Notes under the pieces: generated by a model | What the model was told of the DNA's origin: nothing | What the model saw: only the letters and a program-made list of their open reading frames with translations | Databases searched by the model: none | Made by a program: the position numbers and the translations under genes | NCBI GenBank assembly: GCA_964596195.1 | Contig: CAZQTN010000003.1 | Location: forward strand, 1-41,974 | Direction: 5' to 3' | DNA from: an uncultured Ruminococcus sp. | GTDB lineage: Bacteria; Bacillota; Clostridia; Oscillospirales; CAG-272 | Length of the DNA: 41,974 nt | Shown here: positions 2,371-41,974 of the stretch, piece after piece | How the letters are laid out: each line of letters opens with the position of its first letter | Numbering within the stretch: position 1 is the first letter of the stretch

Positions 2371-4398
2371 TCAATAAACGATACGCAACATCTTAAAGTC
2401 CGTCATTGACACCGTAAATGTAAGCACCTTGCCGTCATACTCAAACGGCACGGCCGAGCCATCGAGGCAATCGCACACGGCGCTCGGGGCGGCGCACTTA
2501 ACTCGGACAGTGATGCCGGCGCATCTCTTATACTCGTCGTACTTAAGATCGCACAGAGAGATAAGGCTCTCACCCTCATCCTCAAAAACGACCGCCTCGA
2601 CCGACGGGCCTGCGTCGAGATCGTACTTCTTCCGTACGTTTGAAAGAACGATATTTTTGAACACGTCGCCAAACGCGCGGCGCTCGTCATACTCAAGCTC
2701 TGCGGCGCACCATATTACCTTGCCCTTACCGAAGCGACGCTCGATATAGGCAGGATGCCCGGTGCTCTGCCAGGGTGGGCAGGAGTGGATCGATGCAAAA
2801 TGCGAGTTATCGTCGGGCTCGGCATACGGCAGAGTTATAGTTGCCCCGGTCTCGCCCGTCGCATTCTCGACTATCGGGAGAAAATAAGTGAGGGGGAGCG
2901 GATACTCTGCGCAGAACTCACCGAAGATATCCTCTTTTTCCCCTGTGGGGCTGATATACACGCGCGCACCGAGCTGAACGGGGCGGCGTTTGGTGTCGCC
3001 GTAGGTCTTACCCACCACCCGTGCGTCAAAAAACGCCTTCATAAGTCGAGAATCGGACGCACCCGAAAGGTAAAGCGTACCGCCATTTTTGACGTAATCT
3101 ATGAGCTTTAATGGCTCGTCGTTTTCAAAATCTCTTAAACTTGGTGCTATAACCATCTGATACTTTGAAAGGTCGTCAAGCGAGCCGTTTGATACTACCG
3201 CGGTGGGCACGTGGCACTCAGCAAGCCGCCTTACCGCGCCGATGGCGCAGGTCTTGTTATAGCGATCCGAGCCGTCCTCGGAGAACATCGTACGACTGTC
3301 AAAATAGACGGCAACCTCGGCGTACAGCTTGCCCCTGTCCATATAAGGCTCGTACGGGAGCTGACGCTCGAACGCCCTGCCCACTCTGTCATAAACACGC
3401 GAGTCGAGCGTGCCGATGGGGTCTATCGCATCAATGATGAGCGATGCACCGTGATGTGCCGCGGTGAGAAGTACCTCTCGCTCAAGATCAGCCTGTGGCT
3501 TGGTTATCGTATGCTCGCGCAGGCTCTTATCGCATCGACAGGTCATATATTCAAACGGCTGATTTTTGGTAACGCCGTAGTAATATTTGCACGCAAAGGA
3601 GTGTGAGTACAGATCGCCGTAAAGGTCGCCGCCGGTAAACTCGCTCTCGGCGTTGATGCCCTCGGTCGAGCCGCCGAGCCAATCACAGCCGATAACGGCG
3701 GCATAGTTAAATTCAACGGTCACCCGGGGCATTACGCGCTCGGTATATGCTCTGACAAATTGAACGAAATCAACCATCCAATCCTGCCTTGCCCGCACGT
3801 ATTTACGCCACACGGGGTCGGCCCAATCCATATTTTCGGGCAACTCCCAGCCTGTTTCCTTCAAGAAGCGATCGCGGCAGGAATCGCAATGGCACGCGAC
3901 CTCCCAATACGGCATATCAAAGAAGAGTCCGTCGATATTTTTGAACTCGCGCGCAAGCTCGTCGATCTGAACCTTTACAAACTCGCGGTACTCAAGATCG
4001 TTCGGACAGCAAAGCCCGTAGCGCTGACCGTGGTCGCGCCAGGTCGTACCGTCGCTATACTTCATTTCCCACTCTGGGTGCATCTCGATGGCACAGTTGT
4101 TGAATATAAGACTGTAATATCCAACGACCTTCATCCCGCCGGCCTTGCATTTTTCGATAAGGCGCTTGAGCTCGTTTTCGCCGCGCAAAAAATGCCTGTG
4201 CGTACGCGCGCTTTCGGTCGGGTAATTGCAAAGACCCGTGTGCGACTGAAGATAAATCATCGGACTTTGGATCCTTGCACGGACAAGATTGTCGTAATAC
4301 TCGTCGGCATTGAATTTTGAGAGAAAACGCTCGTCCGTATCGTTTATATGCATATCCGTCAGCTGACGGCGGTATACGCCCTCATACCATTTTTTCAT
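2371..4398 (-). CDS. Putative glycoside hydrolase, GHL6/GH42-like, with a C-terminal beta-galactosidase-trimerisation-like region.
   Basis: 675-aa ORF. The N-terminus (LTDMHIND...YLQSHTGLCNYPT...GMKVVGYYS) and the Cys cluster CHCDSC resemble the GHL6/GH42 TIM barrel as I recall it. The start overlaps the stop of the upstream gene by ATGA (4395-4398). Confidence 0.6.
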   Translation of the reverse strand: MKKWYEGVYRRQLTDMHINDTDERFLSKFNADEYYDNLVRARIQSPMIYLQSHTGLCNYPTESARTHRHFLRGENELKRLIEKCKAGGMKVVGYYSLIFNNCAIEMHPEWEMKYSDGTTWRDHGQRYGLCCPNDLEYREFVKVQIDELAREFKNIDGLFFDMPYWEVACHCDSCRDRFLKETGWELPENMDWADPVWRKYVRARQDWMVDFVQFVRAYTERVMPRVTVEFNYAAVIGCDWLGGSTEGINAESEFTGGDLYGDLYSHSFACKYYYGVTKNQPFEYMTCRCDKSLREHTITKPQADLEREVLLTAAHHGASLIIDAIDPIGTLDSRVYDRVGRAFERQLPYEPYMDRGKLYAEVAVYFDSRTMFSEDGSDRYNKTCAIGAVRRLAECHVPTAVVSNGSLDDLSKYQMVIAPSLRDFENDEPLKLIDYVKNGGTLYLSGASDSRLMKAFFDARVVGKTYGDTKRRPVQLGARVYISPTGEKEDIFGEFCAEYPLPLTYFLPIVENATGETGATITLPYAEPDDNSHFASIHSCPPWQSTGHPAYIERRFGKGKVIWCAAELEYDERRAFGDVFKNIVLSNVRKKYDLDAGPSVEAVVFEDEGESLISLCDLKYDEYKRCAGITVRVKCAAPSAVCDCLDGSAVPFEYDGKVLTFTVSMTDFKMLRIVY

Positions 4399-5585
4399 TT
4401 ATGTAGCCTTTCAAGATCGGGATTTTCAGCAAAGTGCTTGAGCATTACGATCGGCTCACTCGCACTCTCGTTTGTTATTGTAACACCGCGCCCTGCGGCA
4501 TCGACAGAAACAAAATACTCGTCGTACGTGAGCTGACCGTATCTGATAAGAGTCGGCGTTTCGATAGGCTGACCGCCGAATTTGCCGTGACCCGAAAGCA
4601 TTATCATACCGTATGCGGCGCCGTCCTTTACGGTAACCGTCTTGCCGGGATATACAGTCAGTCGCTTCGCCGAGGCGAGCTTGCTCTTGTAGCATATCCA
4701 CTCTTCCTTGTGTGCATTGGATTCGGTATCGACAATCGGGCGCATAAAGCGGTTCTTCTTGAAGTCGGGATCGACGTTGAGATCCCAATCTATGACGTCC
4801 ATAAGGTAATCAAAATTGCCCTTCTCTTCCTCGGGACAGTTCTTCCAAAGCAGATCCTCACCAACGCACTGACCGCCGTAAAGCACCGACTGATACATAG
4901 CATATACGTCGGATGCAAACTGCGGCTCATAGGTGCAGAGGCTTGCGGGGGCGTGAAGCACTCCCGGAGGGACGTCCCATCCCGTATCAAGCTCTATTTT
5001 ATACGCCTGCGAATAGTCAAGCAGGTGGTTGTCGCCCTTGTGGAAATTCTCGAGACACTTTTTGATCTCGTCCTTTGTACACTCGGGATTAAGACCGAAG
5101 AAGGTAAAGGGAAACTCGCCGCCGTGATTGTTCATCTGTGCGGGGAAGAAATACATTTCGGGCTTTCCCTCGGCGCCAACGCGCCTTGCGTGCTCGTCGC
5201 GGTGATGTATATGATGAGGCAGGGGGCCCGCATTATCAAAGAATTTCGAAAACATCGGCCACTTGTGATACTTATCCCAAAGATCACCTATAACCTCTGC
5301 CCCAAGCTCGTCGATAAGATCGCGAAGCAGCATCTGCTCGCTTCCGTCTTTCGATACAACGTAGCTTAAACCCTCGTCCGCGGGAGTGCCGGGGCCGTTC
5401 TCCGCCCAGGTCGTCGAGGCAAACCAACGCTCGTCGATGCCGCCTCGTTCAAGTCCGAGAACGTAGTAGTCGTCCGGGTGCAGCTTAATGCGCTTTCCGG
5501 GGCGGCAAAAGCTTCTCGGCACCCACGTGGGCTTCAAGCGGAGTATACCGCCAGACTCTTTTAATAGACTTTCGCTCAATTTCAT
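4395..5585 (-). CDS. Cupin-fold sugar isomerase-like protein (type I phosphomannose-isomerase-like).
   Basis: 396-aa ORF. It has His-rich metal-site-like motifs (LPHHIHHRDEH, VLHAP) and a C-terminal jelly-roll region. It is translationally coupled to the glycosidase gene. Confidence 0.5.
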   Translation of the reverse strand: MKLSESLLKESGGILRLKPTWVPRSFCRPGKRIKLHPDDYYVLGLERGGIDERWFASTTWAENGPGTPADEGLSYVVSKDGSEQMLLRDLIDELGAEVIGDLWDKYHKWPMFSKFFDNAGPLPHHIHHRDEHARRVGAEGKPEMYFFPAQMNNHGGEFPFTFFGLNPECTKDEIKKCLENFHKGDNHLLDYSQAYKIELDTGWDVPPGVLHAPASLCTYEPQFASDVYAMYQSVLYGGQCVGEDLLWKNCPEEEKGNFDYLMDVIDWDLNVDPDFKKNRFMRPIVDTESNAHKEEWICYKSKLASAKRLTVYPGKTVTVKDGAAYGMIMLSGHGKFGGQPIETPTLIRYGQLTYDEYFVSVDAAGRGVTITNESASEPIVMLKHFAENPDLERLHK

Positions 5586-7477: not shown

Positions 7478-7882
7478 ATGACGTATAAGACAGAAAAAAG
7501 ATCGGAGATAACCGCGCTTTTAAAGGCATGCCCCGACCGCGCGTTTACGGTGGACGAGATCGCAGAGGCGGTATGCCCCGACGGAAGCGCAAGAAGCACG
7601 GTATACAGAATAGTATCAAAGATGGTCAAGGAGGGCTCTCTTCGCAAGATCACGGACGAGCATTCAAGGCACACGACCTACCAATACCTCGGCGAGCACG
7701 GCTGTGACGAGCATCTGCACCTCAAATGCAAGGAGTGCGGCAGGCTTATACATTTGGACGAGGAAACCTCTCATCTCCTTGAGGAAAAAATAATGACGAA
7801 CAAGCACTTTGCCATTGACGAGGGCGCGATGCTCTTCGGCAGGTGCGAGGGTTGCATAAGCAAAGGGGGTGTGCGCGCATGA
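7478..7882 (+). CDS. Fur-family metalloregulator (Fur/Zur/PerR-like).
   Basis: 134 aa with a winged-helix N-terminus, an HxH region (CDEHLHLKCKECG) and a second CxxC (CEGC). This is the typical structural-Zn Cys4 layout of Fur-family proteins. Confidence 0.8.
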   Translation: MTYKTEKRSEITALLKACPDRAFTVDEIAEAVCPDGSARSTVYRIVSKMVKEGSLRKITDEHSRHTTYQYLGEHGCDEHLHLKCKECGRLIHLDEETSHLLEEKIMTNKHFAIDEGAMLFGRCEGCISKGGVRA

Positions 7883-8799
7883 CTATGCTGCTTCACGCAC
7901 ACGGCGACACCGAGCACGCAAGCCTCTTTGAGGGAATACTCCACGAGGTTTTACTTGACGGACTTATCGACACGCTGAAAATTATTCCCTTTCTCTTCCT
8001 CACTTATCTTTTAATGGAGTTTATCGAGCACAAGGCATCGGGGCGCACGGTTGCCCTGCTCGAAAAATCAGGCAAGGCAGGCCCTGCAATAGGCGGACTG
8101 CTCGGCGTTTTGCCCCAATGCGCATTCTCCGCGGTGGCGGCAAATCTTTACACGGGTAGGGTCATAAGCCTCGGAACGCTTATTGCGGTATTCCTTGCGA
8201 CCTCAGACGAGATGCTGCCGATAATGATCAGCTCCGGCGCATCCTGGCAGAGCGTTTTAGCCATTCTCGGCTATAAGCTCGCAGTCGGAATTATCGCAGG
8301 CTTTGCGATAGATATCGTGCTTCACCTGCTCAATCGCGGCAAGGAAAAGATCGACATCGACGAGATATGCGACAATGACAACTGTCACTGCGAGAGAGGT
8401 ATACTCCTCTCCGCCCTGCACCACACGCTTACGATATCGGTATTTATCCTCGCTGTAACGCTTGTGATAAATCTGTTGATATTCTTCGTTGGCGCGGATA
8501 CGCTTGGCGGCATTGTAAGCCGCATTCCCGTGCTTTCGCATCTTATAGCGGCGCTCATAGGCCTTATCCCCGGCTGTGCGACCTCGGTTGCCCTGACCAC
8601 TCTCGGTCTTGAGGGTATCATTTCGGGCGGAACGATGATGGCAGGCCTGTTTTCGGGTGCGGGAGTAGGTATACTCATTCTCGTGCGTCTCAACAAGCGT
8701 CCAAAGGAAAATCTTGCGATAATGGGTCTGCTCGTTGGTATTGGATTTGTTTTCGGACTTTTGTTTGACCTTTTCAATTTTGCAGATTTTATTGCATAA
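7879..8799 (+). CDS. Polytopic membrane protein of the ArsP_2 / 'putative manganese (heavy-metal) transporter' family.
   Basis: The start was set to ATG 7879, which overlaps the fur-family stop (ATGA) and has a GGGGGT RBS. The motifs LPFLFLTYLLMEFIEHK...GLLGVLPQCAFSAVAANLY...ATSDEMLP match my recollection of PF11449-type proteins. It has a His-rich N-terminus (HAHGDTEH) and a CDNDNCHCE loop. Confidence 0.7.
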   Translation: MTMLLHAHGDTEHASLFEGILHEVLLDGLIDTLKIIPFLFLTYLLMEFIEHKASGRTVALLEKSGKAGPAIGGLLGVLPQCAFSAVAANLYTGRVISLGTLIAVFLATSDEMLPIMISSGASWQSVLAILGYKLAVGIIAGFAIDIVLHLLNRGKEKIDIDEICDNDNCHCERGILLSALHHTLTISVFILAVTLVINLLIFFVGADTLGGIVSRIPVLSHLIAALIGLIPGCATSVALTTLGLEGIISGGTMMAGLFSGAGVGILILVRLNKRPKENLAIMGLLVGIGFVFGLLFDLFNFADFIA

Positions 8800-9941: not shown

Positions 9942-9975
9942 GGGTGACTCCAATGGCTTGGAGTCACCCTTTTTC
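9942..9975 (+). terminator. Strong intrinsic terminator-like hairpin.
   Basis: A 12-bp perfect stem, GGGTGACTCCAA (9942-9953) pairing with TTGGAGTCACCC (9958-9969), has a 4-nt loop and is followed by TTTTT. It ends only 22 nt before the next start codon. Confidence 0.75.
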
Positions 9976-9996
9976 TTAACTTGCCATAGGATAAAT

Positions 9997-11892
9997 ATGA
10001 TTATGGAAAATTACAAGAAACGAACGGTTAATTTGATATCAAATCTCCTGCTTGAATACAAGCAAAACCCCACCGTCGTGCCCTACTATCCGCAAAAGAC
10101 CGTGCTGATGCAAAGGGATCGACAGCCCTTGCCGCACGGCACGCCGGAGGCGCACGGCATATCCTCTCTTGCCATAACGCAACTTTTGCGCGCACTTGAG
10201 GTAGAGCCGCGAGCAAACCTACACTCTATCGTGGTGGTAAAGGACGGTGTAGTCATCGCAGAGGCGTCAGCACCCGAATACTCCGCGACCCTGCCACATC
10301 TGTCGCATTCTATGTCAAAGTCTGTGACGGGTATGCTGATCAATACGCTGATCGACCGAGGCGAGCTTAAGCTCGATACGCGGATCACAGACCTGTTCCC
10401 CGAAATCACACCGAGGGAGGAACGCTTTTACGACTTGACGGTCGCGCACCTGCTCACTATGTCGAGCGGCGTTGTGTTTGCCGAGGTCGGCTCGGTCAGC
10501 GAGAACGAATGGACGCGTGCCTATTTCGAGTCGGAGATGGCCTTTGCGCCGGGCGAGGAATTTGCCTACAACAGTATGAACTCGTATATCCTTATGCACG
10601 CGGCAGACAGAATCGCAAGAAGAAAGCATGGCGCCGACGCTGAGATGCTTTTGAGGGAGCGCATTCTCCGACCGATGGGAATAAACAATTGGTTTTGGGA
10701 GAAGAGTCCTGAGGGTGTGCCCAAGGGCGGCTGGGGACTGTATCTGTCCACTGAAAGCTGGGCAAAGCTCGGCGTTATGATGATGCAGGGCGGCCGCTTC
10801 GGCGGCAGACAGATACTGAGCGAGGAGTCGGTGCGCCGCTCAACCGCCGTCAGCATAAGCGTGCCGCCCGAAATAAGCCCCCACGATTACGGATATCAGA
10901 TATGGGTTGAAAAGGACGGCGGCTTTTTGTTTAACGGGATGCTTGGGCAAAACGTGTGGGTGTGCCCGGAGCGCTCCCTGGTCGTAGCGATAACGGCAGG
11001 AAGCTGTGAGCTGCTTCAGGGTAGTCCTGCGGTAGCGCTGGTGAAGGAGGCGCTCGGCTCACGGAGAGAAGGAAGCGTGCACCACAGACGCTCAAACGAG
11101 CGCGAGCTTGAGAACAAATGTAAATCTTTCTTTACATCTAGAGAGTGGTTAACATTACACGCCCCCTTGCGCGGCCTGCCCTACCTACTCGGACTTAAAA
11201 ACCGCACCCCGTTCGATAGTGAGCTCTTACCATTAGTCGGAAAATACCTTTTCCCGACCAATAATCTCGGCATTTTACCCATATTCGTAAGCGTTATGCA
11301 GAACAACTACGGTGGCGGAATACGCAGCCTTGAGTTCTCGCGCCGAGGCTCGCTTTTGCACCTCGTATGTGAGATGGGCGCGGGCACGGTACACCTCGAC
11401 CTCGGTATCTACTCCTACGCCGAGGGCACCCTGACCCTCGCCCAAGAGCGCTATCTCGTCCGTGCGGCCGTCAGCACCGAGGCGGACGGCGAGGGCGGAA
11501 CCGTCTACAAGCTTGAATTTATATTTCCGGAGCTGCCGAACGTGCGCCGCGCCACTATGTCACTTTCTGCAAACGGACGGCTGCGCGTTCGGCTGTCCGA
11601 GGTGCCAAACGAGAGGATAAGCGACAATCTTTTGCGCGCTGCAGGGACGATGAGTCCGCGTCTTTCCTCATTATTCTCTATGCTTGAGCGCACGCTTGGG
11701 CACGATTATCTCACACGAAAGCTCGGTGAGCTTTTCAACCCTGAGATAACGGCAATATCGACCGCCGCGCCCGACCTTGAGGCTGCCTTAGAGGAGGAAA
11801 ATGAGCGCATCTCGGCAAAAATCAGCTCCTCGCGCCTCGTGCGTTCTCTGCTCTCACGCTTTTTCCGCGGGGGACGGCGAGATAACGGATAA
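9997..11892 (+). CDS. Serine hydrolase, beta-lactamase/PBP4*-fold, with a roughly 300-aa C-terminal extension.
   Basis: The SxxK motif (SHSMSKSVTG) is about 110 aa from the start. The start was set to ATG 9997, because the track start at 9958 lies inside the terminator hairpin. Confidence 0.75.
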   Translation: MIMENYKKRTVNLISNLLLEYKQNPTVVPYYPQKTVLMQRDRQPLPHGTPEAHGISSLAITQLLRALEVEPRANLHSIVVVKDGVVIAEASAPEYSATLPHLSHSMSKSVTGMLINTLIDRGELKLDTRITDLFPEITPREERFYDLTVAHLLTMSSGVVFAEVGSVSENEWTRAYFESEMAFAPGEEFAYNSMNSYILMHAADRIARRKHGADAEMLLRERILRPMGINNWFWEKSPEGVPKGGWGLYLSTESWAKLGVMMMQGGRFGGRQILSEESVRRSTAVSISVPPEISPHDYGYQIWVEKDGGFLFNGMLGQNVWVCPERSLVVAITAGSCELLQGSPAVALVKEALGSRREGSVHHRRSNERELENKCKSFFTSREWLTLHAPLRGLPYLLGLKNRTPFDSELLPLVGKYLFPTNNLGILPIFVSVMQNNYGGGIRSLEFSRRGSLLHLVCEMGAGTVHLDLGIYSYAEGTLTLAQERYLVRAAVSTEADGEGGTVYKLEFIFPELPNVRRATMSLSANGRLRVRLSEVPNERISDNLLRAAGTMSPRLSSLFSMLERTLGHDYLTRKLGELFNPEITAISTAAPDLEAALEEENERISAKISSSRLVRSLLSRFFRGGRRDNG

Positions 11893-11959: not shown

Positions 11960-11988
11960 TTGACTTTTTACACTTTCAAGTGTAAAAT
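11960..11988 (+). promoter_or_regulatory. Promoter of the giant lipoprotein gene.
   Basis: TTGACT (11960-11965), 17-nt spacer, TAAAAT (11983-11988). The AGGAGA RBS lies 8 nt before ATG 12032. Confidence 0.55.
11969..11984. promoter_or_regulatory. Perfect 7-2-7 palindrome (candidate operator) in the promoter spacer/-10.
   Basis: TACACTT-TC-AAGTGTA. It spans the spacer and the first bases of the -10 element. Confidence 0.4.
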
Positions 11989-12031
11989 ATAATCAGCAAA
12001 CAAAAAAAATCCAAACAAAGGAGAAAAACAA

Positions 12032-15000
12032 ATGAAAGCAGTCAAGAGATCCCTCTTGCTCCTTTTGTGTGTTGCAATGCTCGTAGCAGGCGCGATCGTT
12101 ATGTCCGCTTGCTCAAAGGATTGCACCGAGCACGATTGGGGCAACTGGACGGTGACTACCGCCGCTACCTGTATAGCGGAGGGCACCGAGACCCGCACCT
12201 GTAACGAGTGTGGCGAGACGGATACGCGCAAGATCGACAAGGTCGCGCACTCCTTCTCTACCTACGTGTCTGACGGCAATGCGACCTGCACGGCCGACGG
12301 CACCAAGACCGCAACCTGTACGACGAGCGGCTGTACCGCAAAGGACACCGTAGCCGATGCAGGCTCCAAGAAGGCACACACCTTCACCAACTATACGTCG
12401 AACGGCGACGCCAACTGTCAGAAGGACGGCACTAAGACCGCAACCTGTGACACCGAGGGCTGTACCGCCACCGAGACGGTAACTGACGCGGGCTCGAAGA
12501 AAGCCCATTCCTTCACCACCTATCACTCCGACAACAACGCAACCTGCGCAGCTGACGGCACTAAGACCGCAGTTTGTGACTGGTATGGCTGTCAGGAAAC
12601 CGATACGGTGGCCGACGAGGGCTCGAAGAAGAGCCACTCCTTCACCAACTACGTATCGAACAACGATGCAACCTGTGTGCTCGACGGTACTAAGACCGCG
12701 ACTTGTAGCTTCAACGGTTGCTCCGAGACCGATACGATAGAGGACGAGGGCTCCAAGCTCGGACACCTGTGGGATGGCGATCTCACCTGTGAGACCGGCC
12801 ACTCCTGTACCAGAGACAACTGTGACGCTGAGGAAGCGGCACTCGGCCACGATTACAGAGTAGTCGGCGGCGCCGAGCTCACCTGCGAGCAGGACTCCAC
12901 CACTATTTACGCCTGCCAGAACGGCTGCGGCGACGACTTCACCGTTACCAACGAGCTGGCTAAAGGCCACTCTGTTGACGAGTGGACGCTTGACGACGAG
13001 CGGGTCATCGGTGAATGCACCTACGAGCTCATCTACGTCGGCACCTGTGCGAACCCCGGCTGTAGCCAGATCCAGTTCAAGACCGAAGAGGTTGTGAGCC
13101 ACACTCTCAAGTCCACGATACATACCGACGCTACCTGCTCCAACCCCGGACAGAAGCTTATCACCTGCTCCGAGTGCGGCAACTATGAGGCCTATGAGGA
13201 TTACACCAACACCGAGGCTCACGTCTGGACGGTTCAGTCCACCGAGGGTAACGTAACCACCTACGAGTGCTCTGAGTGTCATAGCACCAAGACCGCGATC
13301 ACCGCAACCGAGAGCACCGAGGCTACCGTTGATAAGAGCACCCTTGAGTCTGTCGGCGAGGTTGAGCTTAAGGATGCGAGCATCGCACTTGACAGCGAAA
13401 CTCTCGGCGGCCTTGACGGCGACGTAAGCATCTCCGCAGGCACCCTTGAGGGCACCGACCTTGAAGCAGTAAAGGGCACGCTCGATCAGGATAAGCTTGA
13501 TCAGATCGGCGAGAACCCCATCTACAACTTCGGGCTTAACGATGCAAGCGGTGCCGTTTCCAGCTTCAACGGCTGGGTAACCATCCGCGTTCCCTATACT
13601 CTCGCCGACGGCGAGGACGTTGACTCCATCGCAGTATGGTTCATCAACGACGAGGGCGAGGTCGAGTCTATTCAGGCTACCTACGATAACGGCTACGCCG
13701 TATTCTCCACCAACCACTTCTCCTACTACACCGTAACCCGTCTTACCCCTGCGGAAAGATGCGCGCTTTACAACCATTCCTACAAGGTAACCACCGTAAA
13801 TGCAACTTGTATTACCGACGGCTACGTGCTTAAGGTTTGCCAGCGCTGCGGTCACTCCGAAAAGGAGATCACCGGTAAGGCTACCGGCCACGCAATCACC
13901 ACCACTACCGTTGGTGCAACCTGTACCAAAAGCGGTACTGCAACTCACTCCTGTGACAACTGTGAATACGAGAAAGTTGAGAAGATCGCACCTCTCGGTC
14001 ACGCATGGGCAGCTACCGATAGCGACGAGGCTACCTGTCGGAAGGCAGGCTACACTATATACACCTGCTCCACCTGTAGTGCATCCTACAAGACGGTAAT
14101 CGCTCAGAAGGCTCACTCCTACACCGATACCGTAACCAAGGCTACCTGTACGACCGACGGCTACACCACCAAAGTCTGTGAGTGGTGCCAGTACACCGTA
14201 ACCACTAACAAGATCGCGGCACTCGGCCACGATTACAAGACCTCCACCGTACAGAACGGCTGTACCACCGAGGGCTACACACTTCACGATTGCTCACGCT
14301 GTGACGCAAGCTACAAGACCGACATCGTACCTCCCTCTCACACCTGGGATATCGAGGCACCCACCTGCGGTAAGGGTCAGACCTGTATCGTATGTGGCAA
14401 GGGCGGTCAGTCCGCAACCGGCAACCACACCATGGCGGGCGGCATCTGCTCCGTTTGCGGCGTCGGATGCAACCACACCTATAATTCCGTAGTAACCGCG
14501 CCCACCTGTACCGAGATCGGTTACACCACCAACACCTGTACCGTCTGCGGCGTAGTTGAAAAGACCGACTACAAGTCCGCTGTCGGACACACCGGCGCGC
14601 TTACCTGTACCGTTTGCGGCGAGTCCATCGTTCCCGCAGACTTCTACACCAAGGTATTTGAGTCCATCCTTAACGAGAAGTACACCATCCTCATCGACTC
14701 TATGCAGGTCGACGACGGTATATATGTCGTTGACAGCGAGATCTACGTATCGATCAAGGGCGGCATCAACGGCTGGGGCACGGTCAACGTCAAGGCCTAC
14801 GGCACAGTTGCAACCTTCCGCGCTATTATCGAGGACGGCGTGCTCTACCTTTGCGGCGAGAACACCACGGCTCTTACCGAGTCGAAGAACATTTACGCAA
14901 AGATCCCCTTCATCGAGCTTATTTCCGAAACAGAGGATGCACCCGTAGCGGTATCAATGATCGCATCCCTTCTTATGAACGAGGACGTACTCAACTGGGC

Positions 15001-18000
15001 AAACGACACTCTCCTTCCCTTCGTTTCCAACCTTACCGAGGGCGGCAAGGACGAGGCAAACCTTATCGCTGAGGTTCTCGTTAAGCTTATCTGTGACGTC
15101 ACCGAGGTTGACGGCAATATCGTCATCACTCCCAGCGCAGAGAAGCTCAAGGCACTTAATGCAAGACTCGCAACCGAGACTATCGGCGAGTTTATCGATG
15201 CTGAGTTCGGCGTACGCACCTACGACGATATCGTAGGCAATATCGAGGCATTGCTTAACGCAACCGTCGGCGACCTTATCGACGGTGCGGCAGCAAACGG
15301 CGCTGACGTTATCGCACTCGTTGGTTCACTTGACGCTCTCATTTCCAAGATGGTGGGTCAGGAATGCACCATCTCCGACCTTATGGGTCTTGAAGTCACC
15401 ATTCAGGAAATGCTTCAGGATGATGAGCTCCGCGCGATGACCGTTGAGCAGATAATTGCTATGATCATCGAGGAAATGGGCGGCAGCAGCGGTGGCGGTA
15501 ATGTGGTAACGCCCGAGCCGCCCGTAGAAACCCCCGTGCCCGATTACAACAAGGGCGGAACGGCTGAGCCTGCAAGCGAGGACGGGAAGATCGAGTCCGA
15601 CTCCACCGAGGAGGAGATCGATATCAGCGACAAGATCGTTGAGCTTCTCACTCAGCTTAAGTCTATGACCCTCTACGAGGTAATCGGCGTTGAGATGGAG
15701 ACCTCCGAGGCCGTTGAATACGTTGACGGTATGATCGACGAAGTACTTGCAGAGATCACCCTTTCCATCACCGCCGACAAGAGCGGCAAGCTTATCTCCA
15801 TTGACTTTGCATACGCAGAGTACTGCGACCTGTCTATCGTTGCAGATTACACCTCTACCATCGACTACTCCCAGGTGAAGGCTAACGCAGAGGCCAACAC
15901 CAACCTCAAGGCTGACGAGGATTACATCAGCGGAACCTACAAGTACGGCGAATACGTCTTTGAGATAGACGAAAATGGCAAGCTCGTTAGTATCCGGTAT
16001 ACCTCCATCGCCGACGAACCGAACATAATATGGGAATCCTTCTACGACGACGAGGACAACTACGTTGAGCTCGTTATAGTCAACAAGTACATTGACGAAT
16101 ACAGCGCAGATCTCACCAACGCTCTCATCGCGACGCACAGCGACTGTAAGAATTGGATCGGCGTTGGCATGGTAGCACCCGGCACCTGTACCTCCACGTA
16201 CCAGACCGTTGTCAAAAGATACGTAAACGGCGAGCTTGTTGAGACCATTGACGACCCCGAGATGCTTGAGATGCTCGGTATCGGATCAGATGATTATTCC
16301 TACACCTCAAGCGAGATGATCTGGGTTGGGTTCTTCATCGACTCCGTAACCGGCGAGATCACCAGTTTTGGCGATGCCTATACGCTCCACGAATACGAGG
16401 AGGATGAGGCTAAGCACGTTCCCGCCGTCGGATGCGAGGGCGCAGGCGAGTATCACTACTTCTGTACCGAGTGCGGCGAGACCCTTGTTGTTCCTTACAC
16501 CAACGGCCACGACTACGAGTGGAGCTACGAGCTTAAGGAGGGCGCTACCTCCTGCGAGGACGGCGTTATTGCAACCTACGCCTGCACCGTGTGCGGCAAG
16601 GTACGTAGCACCTATGAAACCGATTATCACGAAACCGATTGGGAGGAGCTTGACTTCTCCGGCTACGGTGTATGTGAGAACCACTATTTTGAGAAGTACT
16701 CCTGCCCCTGCGGACAGAACAGCGGCTTCAGCTACTACAACGGCTTTGATTGGATGGACGGCTACGCATACTGCCCTGAGTGCGGCGTTACCGTAAGCGC
16801 GGACTACACCTACACTCCCGGCGATGGTTGTACGATGAACGAGGCCAGAGTTATCCGCATAACCAAGAACGGCGCGACCATCTACTCCGAGACCGCAAAC
16901 CGCACCTACGAGGATCACGACACGAGAGAGATAGTAACCCTTATGCCCGGCTCCACCACCTGCGAGGACGGTATCATCGTTAAGTGGGTCTGCTCCAAGT
17001 GCGGCGAGGTTGAGAGCGAGTACGAGGAGTACTACCACCGCGAGTACGAGAAGATCATCGTTGACTTCTCAGATTACGGCAGCGTCTGCGGCGGCTACCT
17101 CTACACCTACGGCTGTGCCTGCGGATATTACGAGGACAAGGGCTGGGTACACATATCCGCCGACTGCGAGTTTGAAAAAACTGACGTATACTACAACGAA
17201 TGGCGCGACTACTGCTACAAGTACACCTGTGCAGTAACCAGCCCCGCTTGCGGCTTTACCTACTACGAGCGTAATCGCCTCGTTGAGGGCACGTGCGGCT
17301 ACACCGTATACACAGAATATTATGTAATCGAAAACGGCAACGAGGTCATTCTTTACAGCTACGTTTACACGGATGAGATATATCACAGCTACGAGTCCTC
17401 GTCCGAGAACAAGACCCCCGTTACCGAGTTCCCCTGCCTGTACCTCGTATCGAGAGTTGAGGCGTGCACGGTCTGCGGCCACGAGAACACCTACAACGGC
17501 TACGAATTTATCCACGAGAAGACCAACCACGACGACGGCTACTACTGTGACGTCTGCGGCGATGGCGATCACTACGAGTGTGACGATCAGGGCAGAACTG
17601 TCTGGGAGCTCCACGTTTATTGGTACGCAAACGGCGCGGGTATCCAGAAGGATCAGCAAGAATATCGCTGGATGTACTACAACGACTATCGGTTCACAAC
17701 CTACGAGTACGGCTCTGACGATTACTACTATCTCAGAGACGGAAAATGGGAGATTGTGGATCCCTACTGGCACTCCAACACCTACGAGTACGACTTCAGC
17801 GGTGAGTGCTCCGTCACGATAACCTACGAGAACTCCGATGGAGAGCGCGATTCTTACACCTACCGTGCTTGTGAGTACTTCAACTACGGCTCTGCTACCG
17901 CAGCAACCTGTACTCAGCACGGCGTAGGCACCAAGACCTGCCTTGTCTGCGGCACCGCCAGCTCCTACGAGCTCGAGCCCATCTGCCACGATTGGTATTG

Positions 18001-18808
18001 GTACGACAAGGATGGCGGCTTCGTCTGCGTACACTGCGGACTTAAGAACGCGAACGGCGCAAGCGGTGATATCGTGCTTGAGGATGCGAGCGACCTTGAC
18101 GGTGACGAGGACACCTACATCGTAGGCTACTACTACCGTATGGGCGACAAGTTCGAGATCATCTACGCGATCACCCTTATTGACGAGTACGGCGACGAGA
18201 TAGCATTCGTTGATCTTGATGCTTACGGCATAGCGATCACGCCTTGGGGCGACGGCAGATATATTACCTTCTCCAAGTCGGCAGTTATAGCCGCGGCGGC
18301 TCAGATGGGCTACACCGAGGATCAGTACGACATCCGCATCTCCTTCGTTCCCGTTGGTTGGGAGCAGGAGCTCGATTACGCGATCACCTTTGAGGTGATG
18401 TCCGCGACCGACGAGTGCGAGCACTACTACTACGACGACGTATGCGTATTCTGCGGCGAGAGCTACGAGAATAGCGGAAACGTTGAGGACGGTAACGTAA
18501 ACGTCGATACCGGTGACGTCCTTTACGCCTGGGAGAACGTTAACGAAGAGACCGACGACGGCAAGGTTGTTGTAATACAGACCATGTCCTTCAAGCTCTA
18601 TAAGGATGGCACGGCATATTACGTTGCTACGCTTGAGGACATAACCTCCGGCACGTTCACCACACTTGAAGAGGCAGATGGTGAATGGAAGGAAACCGAG
18701 GACGAAGAATACGGACCTTACATCTGGGCTATCTTCTACTTTGAAGAAGGGCCGGCAGAGCTGATATTCCTGTTCGACGAAAACGGTCATGTTTATCCCG
18801 ATATCTAA
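12032..18808 (+). CDS. Giant (2,258-aa) Cys-rich repeat lipoprotein of unknown function.
   Basis: Signal peptide MKAVKRSLLLLLCVAMLVAGAIVMSAC with a lipobox Cys27. It has arrays of His-Cys3 modules, an acidic Cys-poor centre and a Tyr/Cys-rich C-terminal half. The gene has a strong RBS, its own promoter and its own terminator. Confidence 0.9.
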   Translation: MKAVKRSLLLLLCVAMLVAGAIVMSACSKDCTEHDWGNWTVTTAATCIAEGTETRTCNECGETDTRKIDKVAHSFSTYVSDGNATCTADGTKTATCTTSGCTAKDTVADAGSKKAHTFTNYTSNGDANCQKDGTKTATCDTEGCTATETVTDAGSKKAHSFTTYHSDNNATCAADGTKTAVCDWYGCQETDTVADEGSKKSHSFTNYVSNNDATCVLDGTKTATCSFNGCSETDTIEDEGSKLGHLWDGDLTCETGHSCTRDNCDAEEAALGHDYRVVGGAELTCEQDSTTIYACQNGCGDDFTVTNELAKGHSVDEWTLDDERVIGECTYELIYVGTCANPGCSQIQFKTEEVVSHTLKSTIHTDATCSNPGQKLITCSECGNYEAYEDYTNTEAHVWTVQSTEGNVTTYECSECHSTKTAITATESTEATVDKSTLESVGEVELKDASIALDSETLGGLDGDVSISAGTLEGTDLEAVKGTLDQDKLDQIGENPIYNFGLNDASGAVSSFNGWVTIRVPYTLADGEDVDSIAVWFINDEGEVESIQATYDNGYAVFSTNHFSYYTVTRLTPAERCALYNHSYKVTTVNATCITDGYVLKVCQRCGHSEKEITGKATGHAITTTTVGATCTKSGTATHSCDNCEYEKVEKIAPLGHAWAATDSDEATCRKAGYTIYTCSTCSASYKTVIAQKAHSYTDTVTKATCTTDGYTTKVCEWCQYTVTTNKIAALGHDYKTSTVQNGCTTEGYTLHDCSRCDASYKTDIVPPSHTWDIEAPTCGKGQTCIVCGKGGQSATGNHTMAGGICSVCGVGCNHTYNSVVTAPTCTEIGYTTNTCTVCGVVEKTDYKSAVGHTGALTCTVCGESIVPADFYTKVFESILNEKYTILIDSMQVDDGIYVVDSEIYVSIKGGINGWGTVNVKAYGTVATFRAIIEDGVLYLCGENTTALTESKNIYAKIPFIELISETEDAPVAVSMIASLLMNEDVLNWANDTLLPFVSNLTEGGKDEANLIAEVLVKLICDVTEVDGNIVITPSAEKLKALNARLATETIGEFIDAEFGVRTYDDIVGNIEALLNATVGDLIDGAAANGADVIALVGSLDALISKMVGQECTISDLMGLEVTIQEMLQDDELRAMTVEQIIAMIIEEMGGSSGGGNVVTPEPPVETPVPDYNKGGTAEPASEDGKIESDSTEEEIDISDKIVELLTQLKSMTLYEVIGVEMETSEAVEYVDGMIDEVLAEITLSITADKSGKLISIDFAYAEYCDLSIVADYTSTIDYSQVKANAEANTNLKADEDYISGTYKYGEYVFEIDENGKLVSIRYTSIADEPNIIWESFYDDEDNYVELVIVNKYIDEYSADLTNALIATHSDCKNWIGVGMVAPGTCTSTYQTVVKRYVNGELVETIDDPEMLEMLGIGSDDYSYTSSEMIWVGFFIDSVTGEITSFGDAYTLHEYEEDEAKHVPAVGCEGAGEYHYFCTECGETLVVPYTNGHDYEWSYELKEGATSCEDGVIATYACTVCGKVRSTYETDYHETDWEELDFSGYGVCENHYFEKYSCPCGQNSGFSYYNGFDWMDGYAYCPECGVTVSADYTYTPGDGCTMNEARVIRITKNGATIYSETANRTYEDHDTREIVTLMPGSTTCEDGIIVKWVCSKCGEVESEYEEYYHREYEKIIVDFSDYGSVCGGYLYTYGCACGYYEDKGWVHISADCEFEKTDVYYNEWRDYCYKYTCAVTSPACGFTYYERNRLVEGTCGYTVYTEYYVIENGNEVILYSYVYTDEIYHSYESSSENKTPVTEFPCLYLVSRVEACTVCGHENTYNGYEFIHEKTNHDDGYYCDVCGDGDHYECDDQGRTVWELHVYWYANGAGIQKDQQEYRWMYYNDYRFTTYEYGSDDYYYLRDGKWEIVDPYWHSNTYEYDFSGECSVTITYENSDGERDSYTYRACEYFNYGSATAATCTQHGVGTKTCLVCGTASSYELEPICHDWYWYDKDGGFVCVHCGLKNANGASGDIVLEDASDLDGDEDTYIVGYYYRMGDKFEIIYAITLIDEYGDEIAFVDLDAYGIAITPWGDGRYITFSKSAVIAAAAQMGYTEDQYDIRISFVPVGWEQELDYAITFEVMSATDECEHYYYDDVCVFCGESYENSGNVEDGNVNVDTGDVLYAWENVNEETDDGKVVVIQTMSFKLYKDGTAYYVATLEDITSGTFTTLEEADGEWKETEDEEYGPYIWAIFYFEEGPAELIFLFDENGHVYPDI
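12248..12739 (+). repeat. Four tandem 123-bp (41-aa) near-identical coding repeats.
   Basis: The unit is H-[ST]-F-x-x-Y-x-S-x-x-x-A-x-C-x-x-DGTKTA-x-C-x4-C-x-x-x-(D/E)T(V/I)-x-D-x-GSK. It spans aa 73-236 in four copies, with exact 41-aa periodicity. Confidence 0.9.
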
Positions 18809-18820
18809 TATAATATGACG

Positions 18821-18858
18821 CACGCCCCACGGCTTCGGCCGTGGGGCGTGGTTTTTCT
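18821..18858 (+). terminator. Rho-independent terminator of the giant gene.
   Basis: A 12-bp stem, ACGCCCCACGGC pairing with GCCGTGGGGCGT, has a TTCG loop and is followed by GGTTTTTC. Confidence 0.9.
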
Positions 18859-18871
18859 TTCTCTTATTGAA

Positions 18872-18965: not shown

Positions 18966-19051
18966 TTAGATAAGAAGGAGCACGCGTGTGTTAGCACAAG
19001 GTTACCGAGAGTCACATTCGCACTCTACCTCAGTCTCGCTATGCTCGCCCG

Positions 19052-19315: not shown

Positions 19316-20323
19316 ATGACTATCATTAAAAAAATAAGCACCGCCGTTTTGGCAGTGCTGTTAATATTAGTTACGTTGCTTTTAGCGTTTAACGTTTTTC
19401 TGAATATCGTATTCTTTGATTTCTTCTCCGGTAGCCGCGATATGGGCGAGCTTGAGGGAATATCCGACGGCTTCGTGCATCAGGGGCTTGACTACGTAGA
19501 CGGAACGTTTCTGACGGCGGGATATATGAAGGACAAGGGCCCCTCGCGCATCTATCGCACGAAGGACGGCGAGTCACTCGGCTATACCGAGCTTCTTAAG
19601 GCAAGCGGCAAGGCGTACACGGGGCACGCGGGCGGCATCACCCATTATGGCGACTATCTGTACGTTGCGGGCGGCACCGGATTTGACGTGTTCCCTCTTG
19701 CGGATATTTTAAACGGTGAGCCGACGGCGACCTGCCTCGGCACGGTGAAGTCCTTTAACGACCCTGCGTGGTGCACGGCGTACGGCGGCTATATATTCGG
19801 CGGCTCGTTCGCATGCTCCGACTCTGCGAGCTACGCGCCTGAGGCAGGCGAGGTTATGACGGCGCCAGACGGCAGCGTGAACAACTCGATAATCACGGTA
19901 TTTAAGCTCGACGAGAATGCCGAGCTCGGCATTGACCCTGCGCCCGTGGCGGTCATTTCATCGGGCGACAAGGTACAGGGCGCGTGCTTTACCGAGGATG
20001 GCAATCTCATCCTCTCGACCTCGTGGAGCTTCACGGTGTCAAAATTCTGTTTCTACAACCTTAAGGACGCTGTGGCAGAGGGCACGGCGACCCTCGGCAA
20101 GACCGAGGACTCGGACGGTGTGAGCGTACCCCTGTACTACCTTGACTCGCGCACGCTGAGCTACACCCTTAAATCCATACCGATGGCCGAGGAGATAATC
20201 ATTGTTGACGGCTATATGTATATAATGAACGAATCCGCCTCGCAAAAGTACAAATTTGGCAACCTTATAGGCGGCCGCCGCTTCTATGCCTATGAGATAA
20301 CGGACGGGCATTTTGAAAAGTGA
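19316..20323 (+). CDS. Membrane-anchored hypothetical protein. The extracytoplasmic domain is possibly beta-propeller-like.
   Basis: 335-aa ORF with an N-terminal TM helix (ISTAVLAVLLILVTLLLAFNVFLNIVFF). The remainder is Gly/Tyr/Asp-rich in a beta-type pattern. I recognise no family. Confidence 0.75.
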   Translation: MTIIKKISTAVLAVLLILVTLLLAFNVFLNIVFFDFFSGSRDMGELEGISDGFVHQGLDYVDGTFLTAGYMKDKGPSRIYRTKDGESLGYTELLKASGKAYTGHAGGITHYGDYLYVAGGTGFDVFPLADILNGEPTATCLGTVKSFNDPAWCTAYGGYIFGGSFACSDSASYAPEAGEVMTAPDGSVNNSIITVFKLDENAELGIDPAPVAVISSGDKVQGACFTEDGNLILSTSWSFTVSKFCFYNLKDAVAEGTATLGKTEDSDGVSVPLYYLDSRTLSYTLKSIPMAEEIIIVDGYMYIMNESASQKYKFGNLIGGRRFYAYEITDGHFEK

Positions 20324-40055: not shown

Positions 40056-40119
40056 TCTTTCCTCTATGTTTTTATTTTTTAAACGAATAAATTTGGCGCG
40101 TATATAACGAGCATCAATC

Positions 40120-40148
40120 ATTATATCATACTTTTTTAAAAAAAGCAA
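40120..40148 (-). promoter_or_regulatory. Promoter of the lipoprotein gene.
   Basis: On the minus strand: TTGCTT (40148-40143), 17-nt spacer, TGaTATAAT (TATAAT 40125-40120). Confidence 0.55.
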
Positions 40149-40182: not shown

Positions 40183-41974
40183 TCAAAAATCGTAACCGCT
40201 CTCAAGGTCAAACTCCTCGCCGTTCATAAGCGAGATAAAGTTGTTTACGATCTTCTTAAAGCCGTAGGTCGAGATGTAGAAATCCGATACAGCAGAGGAC
40301 TGAAGCATACTGCCGTTTCCGTCCTCCTCGTACAGGCGTACTACTACTCGGCGGTCAGCGGTGCGGTAAAACTCATAGGTGTAATAATTCTCGTCCTGGT
40401 CGTCGCCGTCCTTGTCGGTATCGATCTTGATCGAGAACTTCATCAGCATCTTGCACTCCTCGACTGCAAAATCCTGCTCTGCCTTATCAACGGAGTCCTC
40501 AAAGTCGACGTAGAACATCGAGAGAATGAACTCCTTGAAGTAGGTGGTACCGAGCGAATCGGGGAAATACGCGGTAAGCGCGTCGTCGCTCTCGGCGGTG
40601 TACTCATAGAGCTCGTCGAAGGAATAATAGTTCCTGCCGTTTTTCTCTATAAGCTGAGTGAGCAGATTGGGTGTGCACTCCCCTGTGGGAGTAACGTTTA
40701 CCTTTATGCGGTCAAAGGTGTCGGAGTAGCTTTCGGGGGGCTTGCCGCCGACCTGCAGGCCGGTAGAGGTGATATACGAGAGCTGATGTATTATATCGAG
40801 CTCGTAGCTGCCAACCAGGTCGTCGAGTGCGAGTTCTATCTTTATCTCTTGCATAAACTCAACGTCGGTCATAAGCATATTTCTTCTCGCCCAAAGATCA
40901 ACGAAGGTATCATCGAGGAAGAAGAAGGTCTCGGCGTCAGCCTTTACGATAACGTCGTAGAGGTCGGAGGCAACTATTCTCGTGCCGTCGTCCTGAACGT
41001 CGCTGATATAGAGGGTAAAGCCAAGCTTTTCGTAGTAGGTGTAATCGTCAAGGGTCTCGTCATCGCCGCTGTCGATGGCAACGAGATTTCTCGGCAGCTC
41101 AAAATAGATCCTGTGCTCGTAAAGGCCGAGGTCGTAGAGCTTTTCGGGAGTTATGCCGACGGATACGATCTCGGAGCCTGAGAGGCCTGAAGAGCTCGAT
41201 GCGTTGTCGGTAACACCGCCGAGAAGCTGAAGTATGTGATAGCATACGTTGTAGTTAAGACCGTAGAGCAGGTAGTCGTCGGTCTTGTTCTCGTAGATAG
41301 AGTCGCCGTAGAAGGGATCACGCTCGGAATACGAGAGGAAGGAGAAGGAAACTATCTCCTTTTTGGTGACGAAATACTTGATCCGGCTGATCTGATAGGT
41401 GCTGAAGGCGCTGAACGCCTCGAAATACTGCGAATCAAGGTCGAGAGTAATGCTCACGAAGGACGCCGTCTTACCGATTATCATCGACTTGAGCGCCTCG
41501 TCAAAGGCGTCCTCGGTGTTTGCAAGATCTACGACACCGATGTGCTCCTCGTCGTCAAGGACTCCGTTTACGATCAGCTGGTAGCGGAAGGAAACGACCG
41601 AATCCTCGGCAACCGTTTTTACCGCCTTGCCGTCCTGATTCTCGATCTCGATGAGCTGAGTTATCTTTGCCTGATAGGTGACGCACTCGGCATTCTCGCG
41701 GTCGTAGCTTACGGTAAACTCAACGGGGGTGTCAAGCTTGCCGATAGAGAGGGCGCGCAAAGCACTTACCGCATCTGCGGGGAGTGACTTGGAGGTGAGG
41801 TCTATAACGGCGTGTGCGAGCATCGGGCCCTGAGATTTGCCGTTAACGGTGTAATAATACGCGACCTTGATAAGGTCGTTGTCGCCGACGGGGGTGCCCG
41901 CCTTGACTATATCGTCGCCGTTGCCTATTATCGACTCGATCTCGACTATCTCATAGGTGTACTTTACGGAATCC
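40183..41974 (-). CDS. Large hypothetical protein, 5'-truncated by the window edge. Possibly DUF4340-like (very tentative).
   Basis: The reading frame stays open from the listed Met (41823) to the last base of the window. I checked codon by codon and found no TTA/CTA/TCA in frame. More than 597 aa are visible. The protein is acidic and Tyr/Asp-rich, and I recognise no catalytic motif. Confidence 0.75.
   Translation of the reverse strand, partial: DSVKYTYEIVEIESIIGNGDDIVKAGTPVGDNDLIKVAYYYTVNGKSQGPMLAHAVIDLTSKSLPADAVSALRALSIGKLDTPVEFTVSYDRENAECVTYQAKITQLIEIENQDGKAVKTVAEDSVVSFRYQLIVNGVLDDEEHIGVVDLANTEDAFDEALKSMIIGKTASFVSITLDLDSQYFEAFSAFSTYQISRIKYFVTKKEIVSFSFLSYSERDPFYGDSIYENKTDDYLLYGLNYNVCYHILQLLGGVTDNASSSSGLSGSEIVSVGITPEKLYDLGLYEHRIYFELPRNLVAIDSGDDETLDDYTYYEKLGFTLYISDVQDDGTRIVASDLYDVIVKADAETFFFLDDTFVDLWARRNMLMTDVEFMQEIKIELALDDLVGSYELDIIHQLSYITSTGLQVGGKPPESYSDTFDRIKVNVTPTGECTPNLLTQLIEKNGRNYYSFDELYEYTAESDDALTAYFPDSLGTTYFKEFILSMFYVDFEDSVDKAEQDFAVEECKMLMKFSIKIDTDKDGDDQDENYYTYEFYRTADRRVVVRLYEEDGNGSMLQSSAVSDFYISTYGFKKIVNNFISLMNGEEFDLESGYDF

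Follow-up and report, generated by a model that had tools for sequence, protein, structure and literature searches.

What holds a giant, cysteine-rich protein in shape outside the cell of an anaerobe is the question raised by one gene in the 41,974-nucleotide stretch of DNA analysed here (contig CAZQTN010000003.1 of an uncultured Ruminococcus sp.; hereafter the window). The gene is an uninterrupted open reading frame (ORF) of 2,258 codons at 12032..18808 on the forward strand, and its product, which contains 105 Cys and 49 His residues, was described in an initial annotation, made without database searches, as a lipoprotein carrying a string of small His-Cys3 modules, each thought to be a self-contained metal-binding bead. 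Our analysis points, with a probability of roughly 70%, to a different architecture, in which the N-terminal ~840 residues would form a metal-stapled beta-sheet stalk of a giant surface lipoprotein. The layout of the protein is as follows.

12032..18808, forward strand: coding sequence of the lipoprotein (full-length orthologues 37-77% identical)
12032..12112, forward strand: signal peptide with lipobox (aa 1-27; VMSAC, Cys27 the predicted acylated residue; fits the PROSITE lipoprotein pattern)
12122..13282, forward strand: array 1 (aa 31-417; 10 predicted interleaved Cys3His sites)
13292..13756, forward strand: Cys-free, strongly conserved domain (aa 421-575; ends in NHFSYYTVTRLTPAER; many invariant columns in the orthologue alignment A3)
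13760..14617, forward strand: array 2 (aa 577-862; 9 predicted interleaved Cys3His sites)
14633..16387, forward strand: acidic, Cys-poor centre (aa 868-1452; 1.0% Cys, net charge -79; conserved in orthologues)
16388..18805, forward strand: Tyr/Asp/Cys-rich C-terminal half (aa 1453-2258; canonical modules plus variant CxxC/CxC knuckles)
17894..18406, forward strand: family-defining C-terminal domain (aa 1955-2125; CGLKNANGASGxIVLED, FSKSAV, YDIRISFVPVG, DYAITFE)

Two arrays of Cys3His modules in a predicted lipoprotein

The N-terminus, MKAVKRSLLLLLCVAMLVAGAIVMSAC, has a basic n-region (K2, K5 and R6) followed by a hydrophobic core and V-M-S-A-C27, which satisfies the lipobox rule [LVI][ASTVI][GAS]C, whose Cys should fall at residues 15-35. 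Cys27 is also invariant across the 14 orthologues in alignment A3. The lipobox signal peptide proposed in the initial annotation is upheld, and these features support a lipid-tethered, extracellular location. No LPXTG-like motif was found in the giant protein by regular-expression search and no SLH, Gram_pos_anchor or other cell-wall-anchor family by Pfam scan, again as first proposed.

The expression H-x8-14-C-x7-11-C-x2-4-C-x10-15-H matches the protein 16 times, compared with a mean of 0.055 and a maximum of 3 matches in 2,000 composition-preserving shuffles. Thirteen matches fall within aa 34-853 (the module first quoted as an example is aa 657-695), and the other three, at aa 1453-1533 and 1629-1669, had not been listed previously. 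The regex modules, shortened variants at aa 245-272, 770-798 and 799-814, and two end caps (H397..C413/C416 and H853..C859/C862) amount to 19 sets of one His and three Cys in aa 31-862, in agreement with the original count of about 19; the spacing described as almost invariant holds for 13 of these 19 units but not for the remainder. Array 1 consists of a leading Cys31, one 39-aa module, four 43-aa C-x9-C-x4-C modules, four irregular modules and the cap H397/C413/C416, and array 2 of a leading Cys577, five 37-38-aa C-x9-C-x2-C modules, two short modules, one full module opened by C813-x-H815 and the cap H853/C859/C862. At the DNA level, Tandem Repeats Finder detected a 129-bp repeat at 12277-12757 (3.7 copies, 71-73% matches) and no tandem repeat in array 2.

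A word-indexed search returned 1,133 homologues among 8,000 candidates scored, of which 120 were listed. The 13 closest (P0002-P0014), which come from independent assemblies, align over the whole length at 37-77% identity and the ligands are invariant throughout. Module hidden Markov models (HMMs), seeded on the modules of the window protein and iterated once, located ~3,100 modules in the 120 listed homologues and merged the 43-aa type of array 1 and the 37-38-aa type of array 2 into a single family. Within this set Cys2 is conserved in 100%, Cys3 in 95%, Cys1 in 91-93% and the Gly at position C1+4 in 92% of modules, and no residue but His was seen whenever the His column was aligned.

Evidence for a probable ligand register across neighbouring modules

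To assign ligands to sites we compared a within-module register, in which each module uses its own His and three Cys, with an interleaved register, in which site k+1 combines Cys1 of module k with the His, Cys2 and Cys3 of module k+1. The interleaved register produces 10 + 9 (C,H,C,C) sets and consumes all Cys residues of aa 28-867, whereas the within-module register leaves Cys31 and Cys577 over and both caps one ligand short, the array-end cap H-x5-7-CxxC having only three ligands of its own. In the window arrays an extra Cys stands ahead of the first His (C31-x2-H34, C577-x4-H582 and C813-x-H815), and in most homologues the array starts with 'CxH'. Across the family, a Cys no more than 5 aa before the His is present in 192 of 682 first modules but in only 10 of 2,382 internal modules (odds ratio (OR) 93). 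At the opposite end, Cys1 is absent from 24 of 44 array-terminal modules that have no following His, compared with 40 of 680 others (OR 19).

Ligand swaps between modules follow the same register. For these counts the ~3,100 modules of the 120 homologues were clustered at <=60% identity and anchored by HMM, since a strict regular expression misses variant neighbours. Among clusters lacking Cys1(k), 59 of 70 have an additional His or Cys in knuckle k+1, as opposed to 41 of 503 in which Cys1(k) is present (OR 60, p 1e-41). The substituting ligand is a His in 55 of the 59, typically within C-x2-H-x2-C, and otherwise an extra Cys. As controls, loss of Cys1 is not compensated in the same module (OR 0.8) and has no association with the preceding one. 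Most of the swap signal originates from a di-module subtype, in which the module after an 'H-x-W-G-x-W ... A-T-[ENQT]' module without Cys1 has a C-x2-H-x2-C knuckle, giving His2Cys2 sites; this subtype occurs in P0036, P0040, P0042, P0050, P0054 and the IgA protease (IgAse) of Thomasclavelia ramosa.

In a mean-field direct-coupling analysis of 1,179 anchor-aligned di-module rows (Meff 877), the knuckle loop of module k was coupled with the residues that follow His(k). Positions -2 and -3 relative to His(k+1) were linked to the Cys1(k) turn, and position -2 was linked to the module k+1 knuckle as well. Most of these couplings were recovered in both module copies. It also gave strand pairings beta0-beta2 and beta2-beta3, with Cys1 and Cys2 at opposite ends of beta2. 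An AlphaFold2 model of aa 574-775, built on a 34-row alignment, was predicted with high confidence (pLDDT 94.7), and DSSP assigned exactly three strands per module and no helix within the array. The turn joining beta0 to beta2 holds Cys1 and the one joining beta2 to beta3 holds the knuckle, which puts the two at either end of a strand of 6-7 residues, and each Cys3His set therefore spans modules k and k+1; the up-and-down topology places His(k) and knuckle(k) at one end of the sheet and therefore Cys1(k) and His(k+1) at the other. Modelling of consecutive modules, which the initial annotation had suggested, yielded confident sheets with Cys1 a strand away from its own knuckle. The consistent reading of these data is that the sites lie between neighbouring modules.

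Relationship to the IgA protease of Thomasclavelia ramosa

Scans of the whole protein against Pfam and NCBIfam returned nothing over threshold (PHD_4, E 0.08; GBS BAC, E 3e-4), with no zinc-finger or zinc-ribbon family of Pfam past threshold, and searches of PDB sequences, using phmmer with the whole protein or a 14-orthologue profile, gave only sub-threshold matches to C2H2 or Kti11 knuckles. To this extent the module has no named family, as first supposed. A relative can nevertheless be named. A five-module profile (A1) matched PDB sequence 9qa6_A at aa 844-978 (E 0.015) and 1096-1142, and the family HMM built from the ~3,100 modules scored 19.2, 21.8 and 30.0 bits on three IgAse modules, in a fragment rebuilt from alignment output. 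As judged from sequence, the window module is homologous to regions of the T. ramosa M64 IgA protease that have been named ZBD1 and ZBD2 (PMC12237041; PLoS Pathog 2025) or CTD2 and CTD4 (PMC12415215; PNAS 2025).

These regions were predicted in 2025 to adopt a new zinc-linked 'periscope' stalk fold (PMC12237041; PMC12415215). The ZBD models consist of three-stranded up-and-down sheets and place tetrahedral Cys/His sites (mostly His2Cys2, with one Cys3His) where the subdomains meet; ZBD1 measures ~110 Å for three sheets in the model (~37 Å per sheet), and subdomain I is remotely similar to the TFIIS zinc ribbon (PMC12237041). CTD2 is a fully extended rod by small-angle X-ray scattering (SAXS), and the zinc of the CTDs was proposed to be structural (PMC12415215). 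The relative is not a well-characterised family of known function: the ZBDs are predicted from models, are unresolved in PDB 9QA6 and are considered by the authors a possible novel fold pending validation (PMC12237041; PMC12415215). This explains the outcome of a Foldseek search of PDB with our five-module model (best E 0.02, TM<=0.21), for which a long rod is in any case a weak test of a 40-aa unit. A full-text literature search gave no further description of the module beyond the two IgAse papers.

In both proteins, three-stranded sheets with almost no hydrophobic core are predicted to be stacked end to end with Cys/His tetrads at their interfaces, and in both they are read as the extended (periscope) stalk of a Firmicute surface protein, with SAXS available for CTD2 only. 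Neither module has a Pfam family or a structural homologue. The inter-sheet register that we derived independently agrees with the IgAse models. The two proteins differ in that IgAse has only 3+2 sheets, a sortase-anchored C-terminus and a protease, whereas the window protein has 19 consecutive predicted Cys3His junctions in two arrays, further modules in its C-terminal half, an N-terminal lipid anchor and no recognisable enzyme or adhesin domain. Because Cys3His is the majority type across the family, IgAse is a divergent member of it. The idea of a zinc-linked stalk is already published for the IgA protease; what is new is the size of the family and its canonical Cys3His form, which have not been described so far.

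Size and distribution of the module family

To estimate the extent of the family, the A1 profile was run against 1.84 billion cluster representatives (clusters at 50% identity). It matched 67,096 of them at E<=1e-3, 43,335 at E<=1e-10 and 16,680 at E<=1e-30; the weak end of these matches may hold eukaryotic C2H2 arrays, which the E<=1e-30 set should not. The longest matching proteins reach 7,583 aa. Foldseek against BFVD found the module fold in two gut-virome proteins named 'SLH-domain' (E 5e-14) and 'leucine-rich-repeat' (E 1.6e-5), a further case of the module serving as a surface-protein spacer.

The C-terminal domain at aa 1955-2125 has counterparts in 60 of the 120 listed homologues, where it often forms the very end of the protein, whereas the remaining homologues share the modules only, joined to GH20, LRR, Flg_new, cohesin/dockerin or Big_2 domains. 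Among GTDB species-representative genomes the domain is present at 40 loci, nearly all in metagenome-assembled genomes (MAGs) of uncultured Clostridia, Eubacteriales, Oscillospiraceae or Christensenellaceae, and where a source is named it is a human, roe-deer or sheep gut sample. A contig search of genomes with the central domain alone revealed no relative. The number of anchored modules per orthologue ranges from 13 to 42 (n=14), with 14 in the window protein, 25 in P0004 and 42 in P0011, as is expected of a spacer.

Regions outward of the arrays

The Cys-free domain between the arrays, described as beta-rich in the initial annotation, does end in NHFSYYTV (aa 561-568) as stated there. Its sole family match is a weak one, to the NCBIfam GBS IgA-binding BAC family (E 3e-4, aa 507-572). 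The acidic, Cys-poor centre was likewise correctly recognised; it has no match in Pfam, NCBIfam or PDB sequence searches. The C-terminal half is rich in Tyr (12%), Cys (5%) and Asp+Glu (19.5%) as proposed, but of the 'dozens' of CxxC pairs only 9 were counted. It contains canonical modules at aa 1453-1533, 1629-1669 and 1955-1988, and an AlphaFold2 model of aa 1440-2258 (35-row alignment, pLDDT 84.4) is almost wholly beta. Foldseek comparison of this half with PDB gave generic all-beta matches only (DDB1 and LptD, TM<=0.10), and with the 14-orthologue whole-protein profile neither the Cys-free domain nor the acidic centre nor the C-terminal domain matched a relative of solved structure.

Many orthologues among P0002-P0011 extend past the C-terminus of the window protein in repeated copies of a minimal unit, C-x-H-x6-7-C-x2-C, such as ECNHEFVDGWCIYC. 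By its sequence this unit would be a self-contained Cys3His mini-site, and it alternates with full modules and with a Tyr-rich beta unit of ~70 aa. The window protein holds just one minimal unit, C2129-x-H2131...C2138-x2-C2141.

A proposed metal-stapled stalk and the alternatives to it

We propose that aa 31-862 fold into two rods of small three-stranded up-and-down beta-sheets (16-44 aa, mostly 37-43), in which a tetrahedral Cys3His site, most probably with a structural Zn2+ bound, would clamp every sheet-sheet junction. Each staple would consist of Cys1 at the tip of the beta0-beta2 hairpin of sheet k together with the opening His and the C-x2(4)-C knuckle of sheet k+1, so that array 1 would have ten staples and array 2 nine. 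Their role, which falls to disulfides in the extracellular repeats of aerobes, would be to stiffen sheets in which a hydrophobic core is all but lacking. Acylation at Cys27 would probably hold the protein in the membrane's outer leaflet in this gut Clostridia (Eubacteriales) bacterium, with array 1 following directly; its ten sheets would measure roughly 30-37 nm if scaled from the IgAse ZBD1 model, approximately the length needed to cross a Gram-positive wall. The Cys-free domain, array 2, the acidic centre and the all-beta C-terminal region would lie successively outward, with both rods together spanning very roughly 55-70 nm at ~37 Å per sheet. Such a stalk, or 'periscope', would project the distal parts, and any binding activity they may have, from the membrane through and beyond the cell wall.

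Like the stalks of periscope proteins and fibrillar adhesins (SHIRT of Sgo_0707, G5-E of SasG/Aap; PMC8201768, PMC9999234), the arrays would use tandem small beta modules as a rod that projects a distal region from a Gram-positive surface, with a repeat number that varies among orthologues, and G5 repeats are also single-layer sheets without a core. The SHIRT and G5-E modules are, however, unrelated to the window module in sequence and fold and need no internal metal, the Zn of Aap mediating dimerisation through His/Asp/Glu surface sites. With zinc ribbons and C2H2 fingers the module shares a C-x2-C-G knuckle at the tip of a beta-hairpin after an aromatic or Thr-rich strand, and the array has a weak profile match to the C2H2 array Aart (E 1.5e-4 for the whole array; per-domain E values are not significant). 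Whereas a classical zinc ribbon holds one Zn between two knuckles, the window module has a single CxxC knuckle with Cys1 at the opposite end of the sheet, and in contrast to the beta-beta-alpha C2H2 finger, which carries H-x3-5-H on a helix, the array model has neither a helix nor an HxxxH motif. The fourth ligand would come from a neighbour, the metal bridging domains rather than nucleating one, and the protein is predicted to be extracellular and not to bind nucleic acid. Ligands of adjacent sites are also interleaved in RING/PHD domains and the DnaJ Cys-rich domain, which are closed two-metal domains. In the window array the interleaving would instead be open-ended along a linear array, with Cys1(k) located upstream of knuckle k but binding with knuckle k+1.

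Several points weigh against the proposed stalk. The inter-module register depends on topology, covariation and bookkeeping. The swap statistics are drawn from related sequences, and clustering lessens but does not abolish their non-independence. Zn2+ is favoured from the ligand types alone, and the length estimates are scaled from a model of another protein. For the distal part, no Foldseek or profile match was informative as to a ligand or role. Finally, canonical periscope repeats are near-identical at the DNA level (PMC8201768), while those of the window are only 71-73% alike, so that although its repeat number varies among orthologues in the manner of periscope proteins, this is not a canonical member with rapid length switching.

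Among other explanations, the one that survives best, though we regard it as unlikely, is that the metal sites are themselves the function, as a surface buffer, store or sensor of zinc or another metal, as a switch of stiffness or fold, or as rubredoxin-like Fe redox centres. The presence of at least 19 sites on one surface protein, with more in the C-terminal half, would suit such roles, as would a Fur-family regulator and a metal/arsenic efflux permease encoded 3-4 kb upstream and syntenic in one orthologue. However, this neighbourhood is absent at orthologue P0012 and the regulator's best score, far short of the cut-off, is as a PerR-like protein; a fully coordinated Cys3His set is typical of tight, structural, non-exchangeable sites; and many unrelated surface proteins employ the module as a spacer. 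We rejected an electron-transfer chain of Fe sites because the spacing of the sites, ~3-4 nm by IgAse scaling, is too far for electron hopping.

The self-contained beads of the initial annotation, each ~40-aa module folding round one Zn by means of its own His and three Cys and being flexibly strung to the next, are an improbable arrangement. The count of three Cys and one His per module and the preference for metal over disulfides both stand, and the C-x2-C-G knuckle with its preceding aromatic strand, weakly matching Aart, would be in keeping with independent fingers. What fails is the assignment of all four ligands to one module: Cys1 and Cys2 are separated by the length of a strand, Cys31 and Cys577 would be spare while both caps lacked a ligand, loss of Cys1 is compensated in the next module and not in its own, and at array ends Cys1 is lost together with the following His. 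The IgAse models likewise put the sites at subdomain interfaces (PMC12237041).

We give little credence to a metal-free Cys-rich repeat, stabilised by disulfides within or between modules in the manner of EGF-like domains. Disulfides are the usual means of holding small extracellular modules, and this protein is predicted to be extracellular, but an odd number of Cys per unit alongside a near-invariant His would be hard to accommodate, the hosts are gut anaerobes, and the experimental IgAse structures contain no disulfides despite 24 Cys, although the ZBDs lie outside the resolved part (PMC12237041). The swap data bear most directly on this question, since a His, which takes the place of the missing Cys1 in 55 of the 70 clusters, can replace a Cys in a metal site but not in a disulfide. 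That the ORF is a repeat-assembly artefact or a decaying pseudogene is very improbable: the sequence is of metagenome type and repeat arrays are prone to misassembly, but the 6.8-kb frame is unbroken and has a ribosome-binding site, promoter and terminator, its DNA repeats are too diverged to collapse in assembly, the ligands are invariant in 13 independently assembled homologues, and the gene is syntenic in another MAG.

Expression signals and genomic neighbourhood

The sequences flanking the giant gene contain the following candidate expression signals.

11960..11988, forward strand: sigma-70-like promoter TTGACT-17 nt-TAAAAT (consensus scan 10/12; a pattern match only)
11967..11986, no strand assigned: operator-like palindrome TTTACACTT-tc-AAGTGTAAA, overlapping the promoter spacer and -10 hexamer
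12017..12023, forward strand: ribosome-binding site AAAGGAG, 8 nt from the ATG, as read off the sequence
18821..18860, forward strand: intrinsic terminator with a 13-bp G+C-rich stem (18821-18850), TTCG loop and T-run

The gene's own promoter with an overlapping palindrome, noted in the initial annotation, was thus recovered, as was the terminator, in which we count 13 pairs rather than 12. The promoter-like site begins 68 nt past the stop codon of the upstream gene (11892). An inverted repeat, TTTACAC-N6-GTGTAAA, also occurs in the same place upstream of orthologue P0005 in another MAG (locus L001, positions 7941-7960; 70% protein identity), and the palindrome looks like a putative operator for some repressor; it has no likeness to a Fur, Zur or PerR box. 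No Rfam match was found anywhere in the window, including the 465-nt spacer at 18851-19315. Synteny of the neighbourhood extends to P0005 and not to P0012, and the giant gene therefore looks free-standing.

The neighbours are ordinary chromosomal genes of a spore-forming Firmicute, encoding a Fur-family regulator, ArsP_2, a GFO/IDH/MocA oxidoreductase, a beta-lactamase-fold protein, SpoU, PepF, an Na/H exchanger, an asparaginase, a fucosidase, SpoIIE, TruB and AddA, and the module is absent from all neighbouring gene products checked in the window. Directly upstream, and syntenic with the giant gene in L001, the 644-aa beta-lactamase-fold protein (9958..11892, forward strand) has as its best NCBIfam match '3-succinylated cholic acid synthase' (E 4.9e-53, 180 bits against a cut-off of 800 bits); it could be a bile-acid or other acyl-transfer enzyme rather than a beta-lactamase. 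The Fur-family regulator (7478..7882, forward strand), which is weakly PerR/Fur-like, overlaps by 40 nt the gene for the ArsP_2/arsenic-efflux-type permease (7843..8799, forward strand), and the pair is present in L001. Because it is absent near P0012, a link to the zinc-rich protein is unlikely, and we rejected membership of a common metal regulon on the grounds of synteny in one orthologue only, the weak PerR/Fur score and a palindrome that is not a Fur box. Downstream, 19316..20323 (forward strand) encodes a 335-aa protein with an N-terminal membrane helix and no Pfam or NCBIfam family; this gene has its own strong promoter-like site (19256-19284, 11/12) and is absent from the otherwise syntenic L001. 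Three reverse-strand ORFs, 37899..40148, 40183..41823 and 4395..5585 (749, 546 and 396 aa), have no Pfam match at E<=1e-5.

Implications for the surface of gut Firmicutes

In bacteria, structural zinc outside the cell is unusual, disulfides or calcium being the normal means of stabilising small extracellular modules. If the proposed register is correct, core-less beta-sheet rods joined solely by inter-domain Cys3His staples would represent a distinct design principle fitting anaerobes, and an open-ended interleaved chain of metal sites would be without described structural precedent. The covariation rules lead to a specific, testable ligand assignment for every site, and the long, regular, majority-type Cys3His arrays of the window protein suit such tests better than does the IgA protease.

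Although very widespread, the module escapes annotation; given a family model, tens of thousands of giant gut Clostridia surface proteins now called 'hypothetical' would receive an annotation. We tentatively raise the possibility that the arrays described here are the canonical form of a huge family, so far absent from the databases, of zinc-stapled core-less rods of anaerobic gut Firmicutes, with this protein as a membrane-anchored, perhaps wall-spanning stalk that carries a new distal all-beta module. Were the staples indeed zinc, a sizeable part of the gut Firmicute surface proteome would be zinc-dependent in shape, host zinc limitation could affect the display of commensal surface proteins, and adhesins, glycosidases and IgA proteases would be sensitive to the withholding of zinc by the host, for example by calprotectin.

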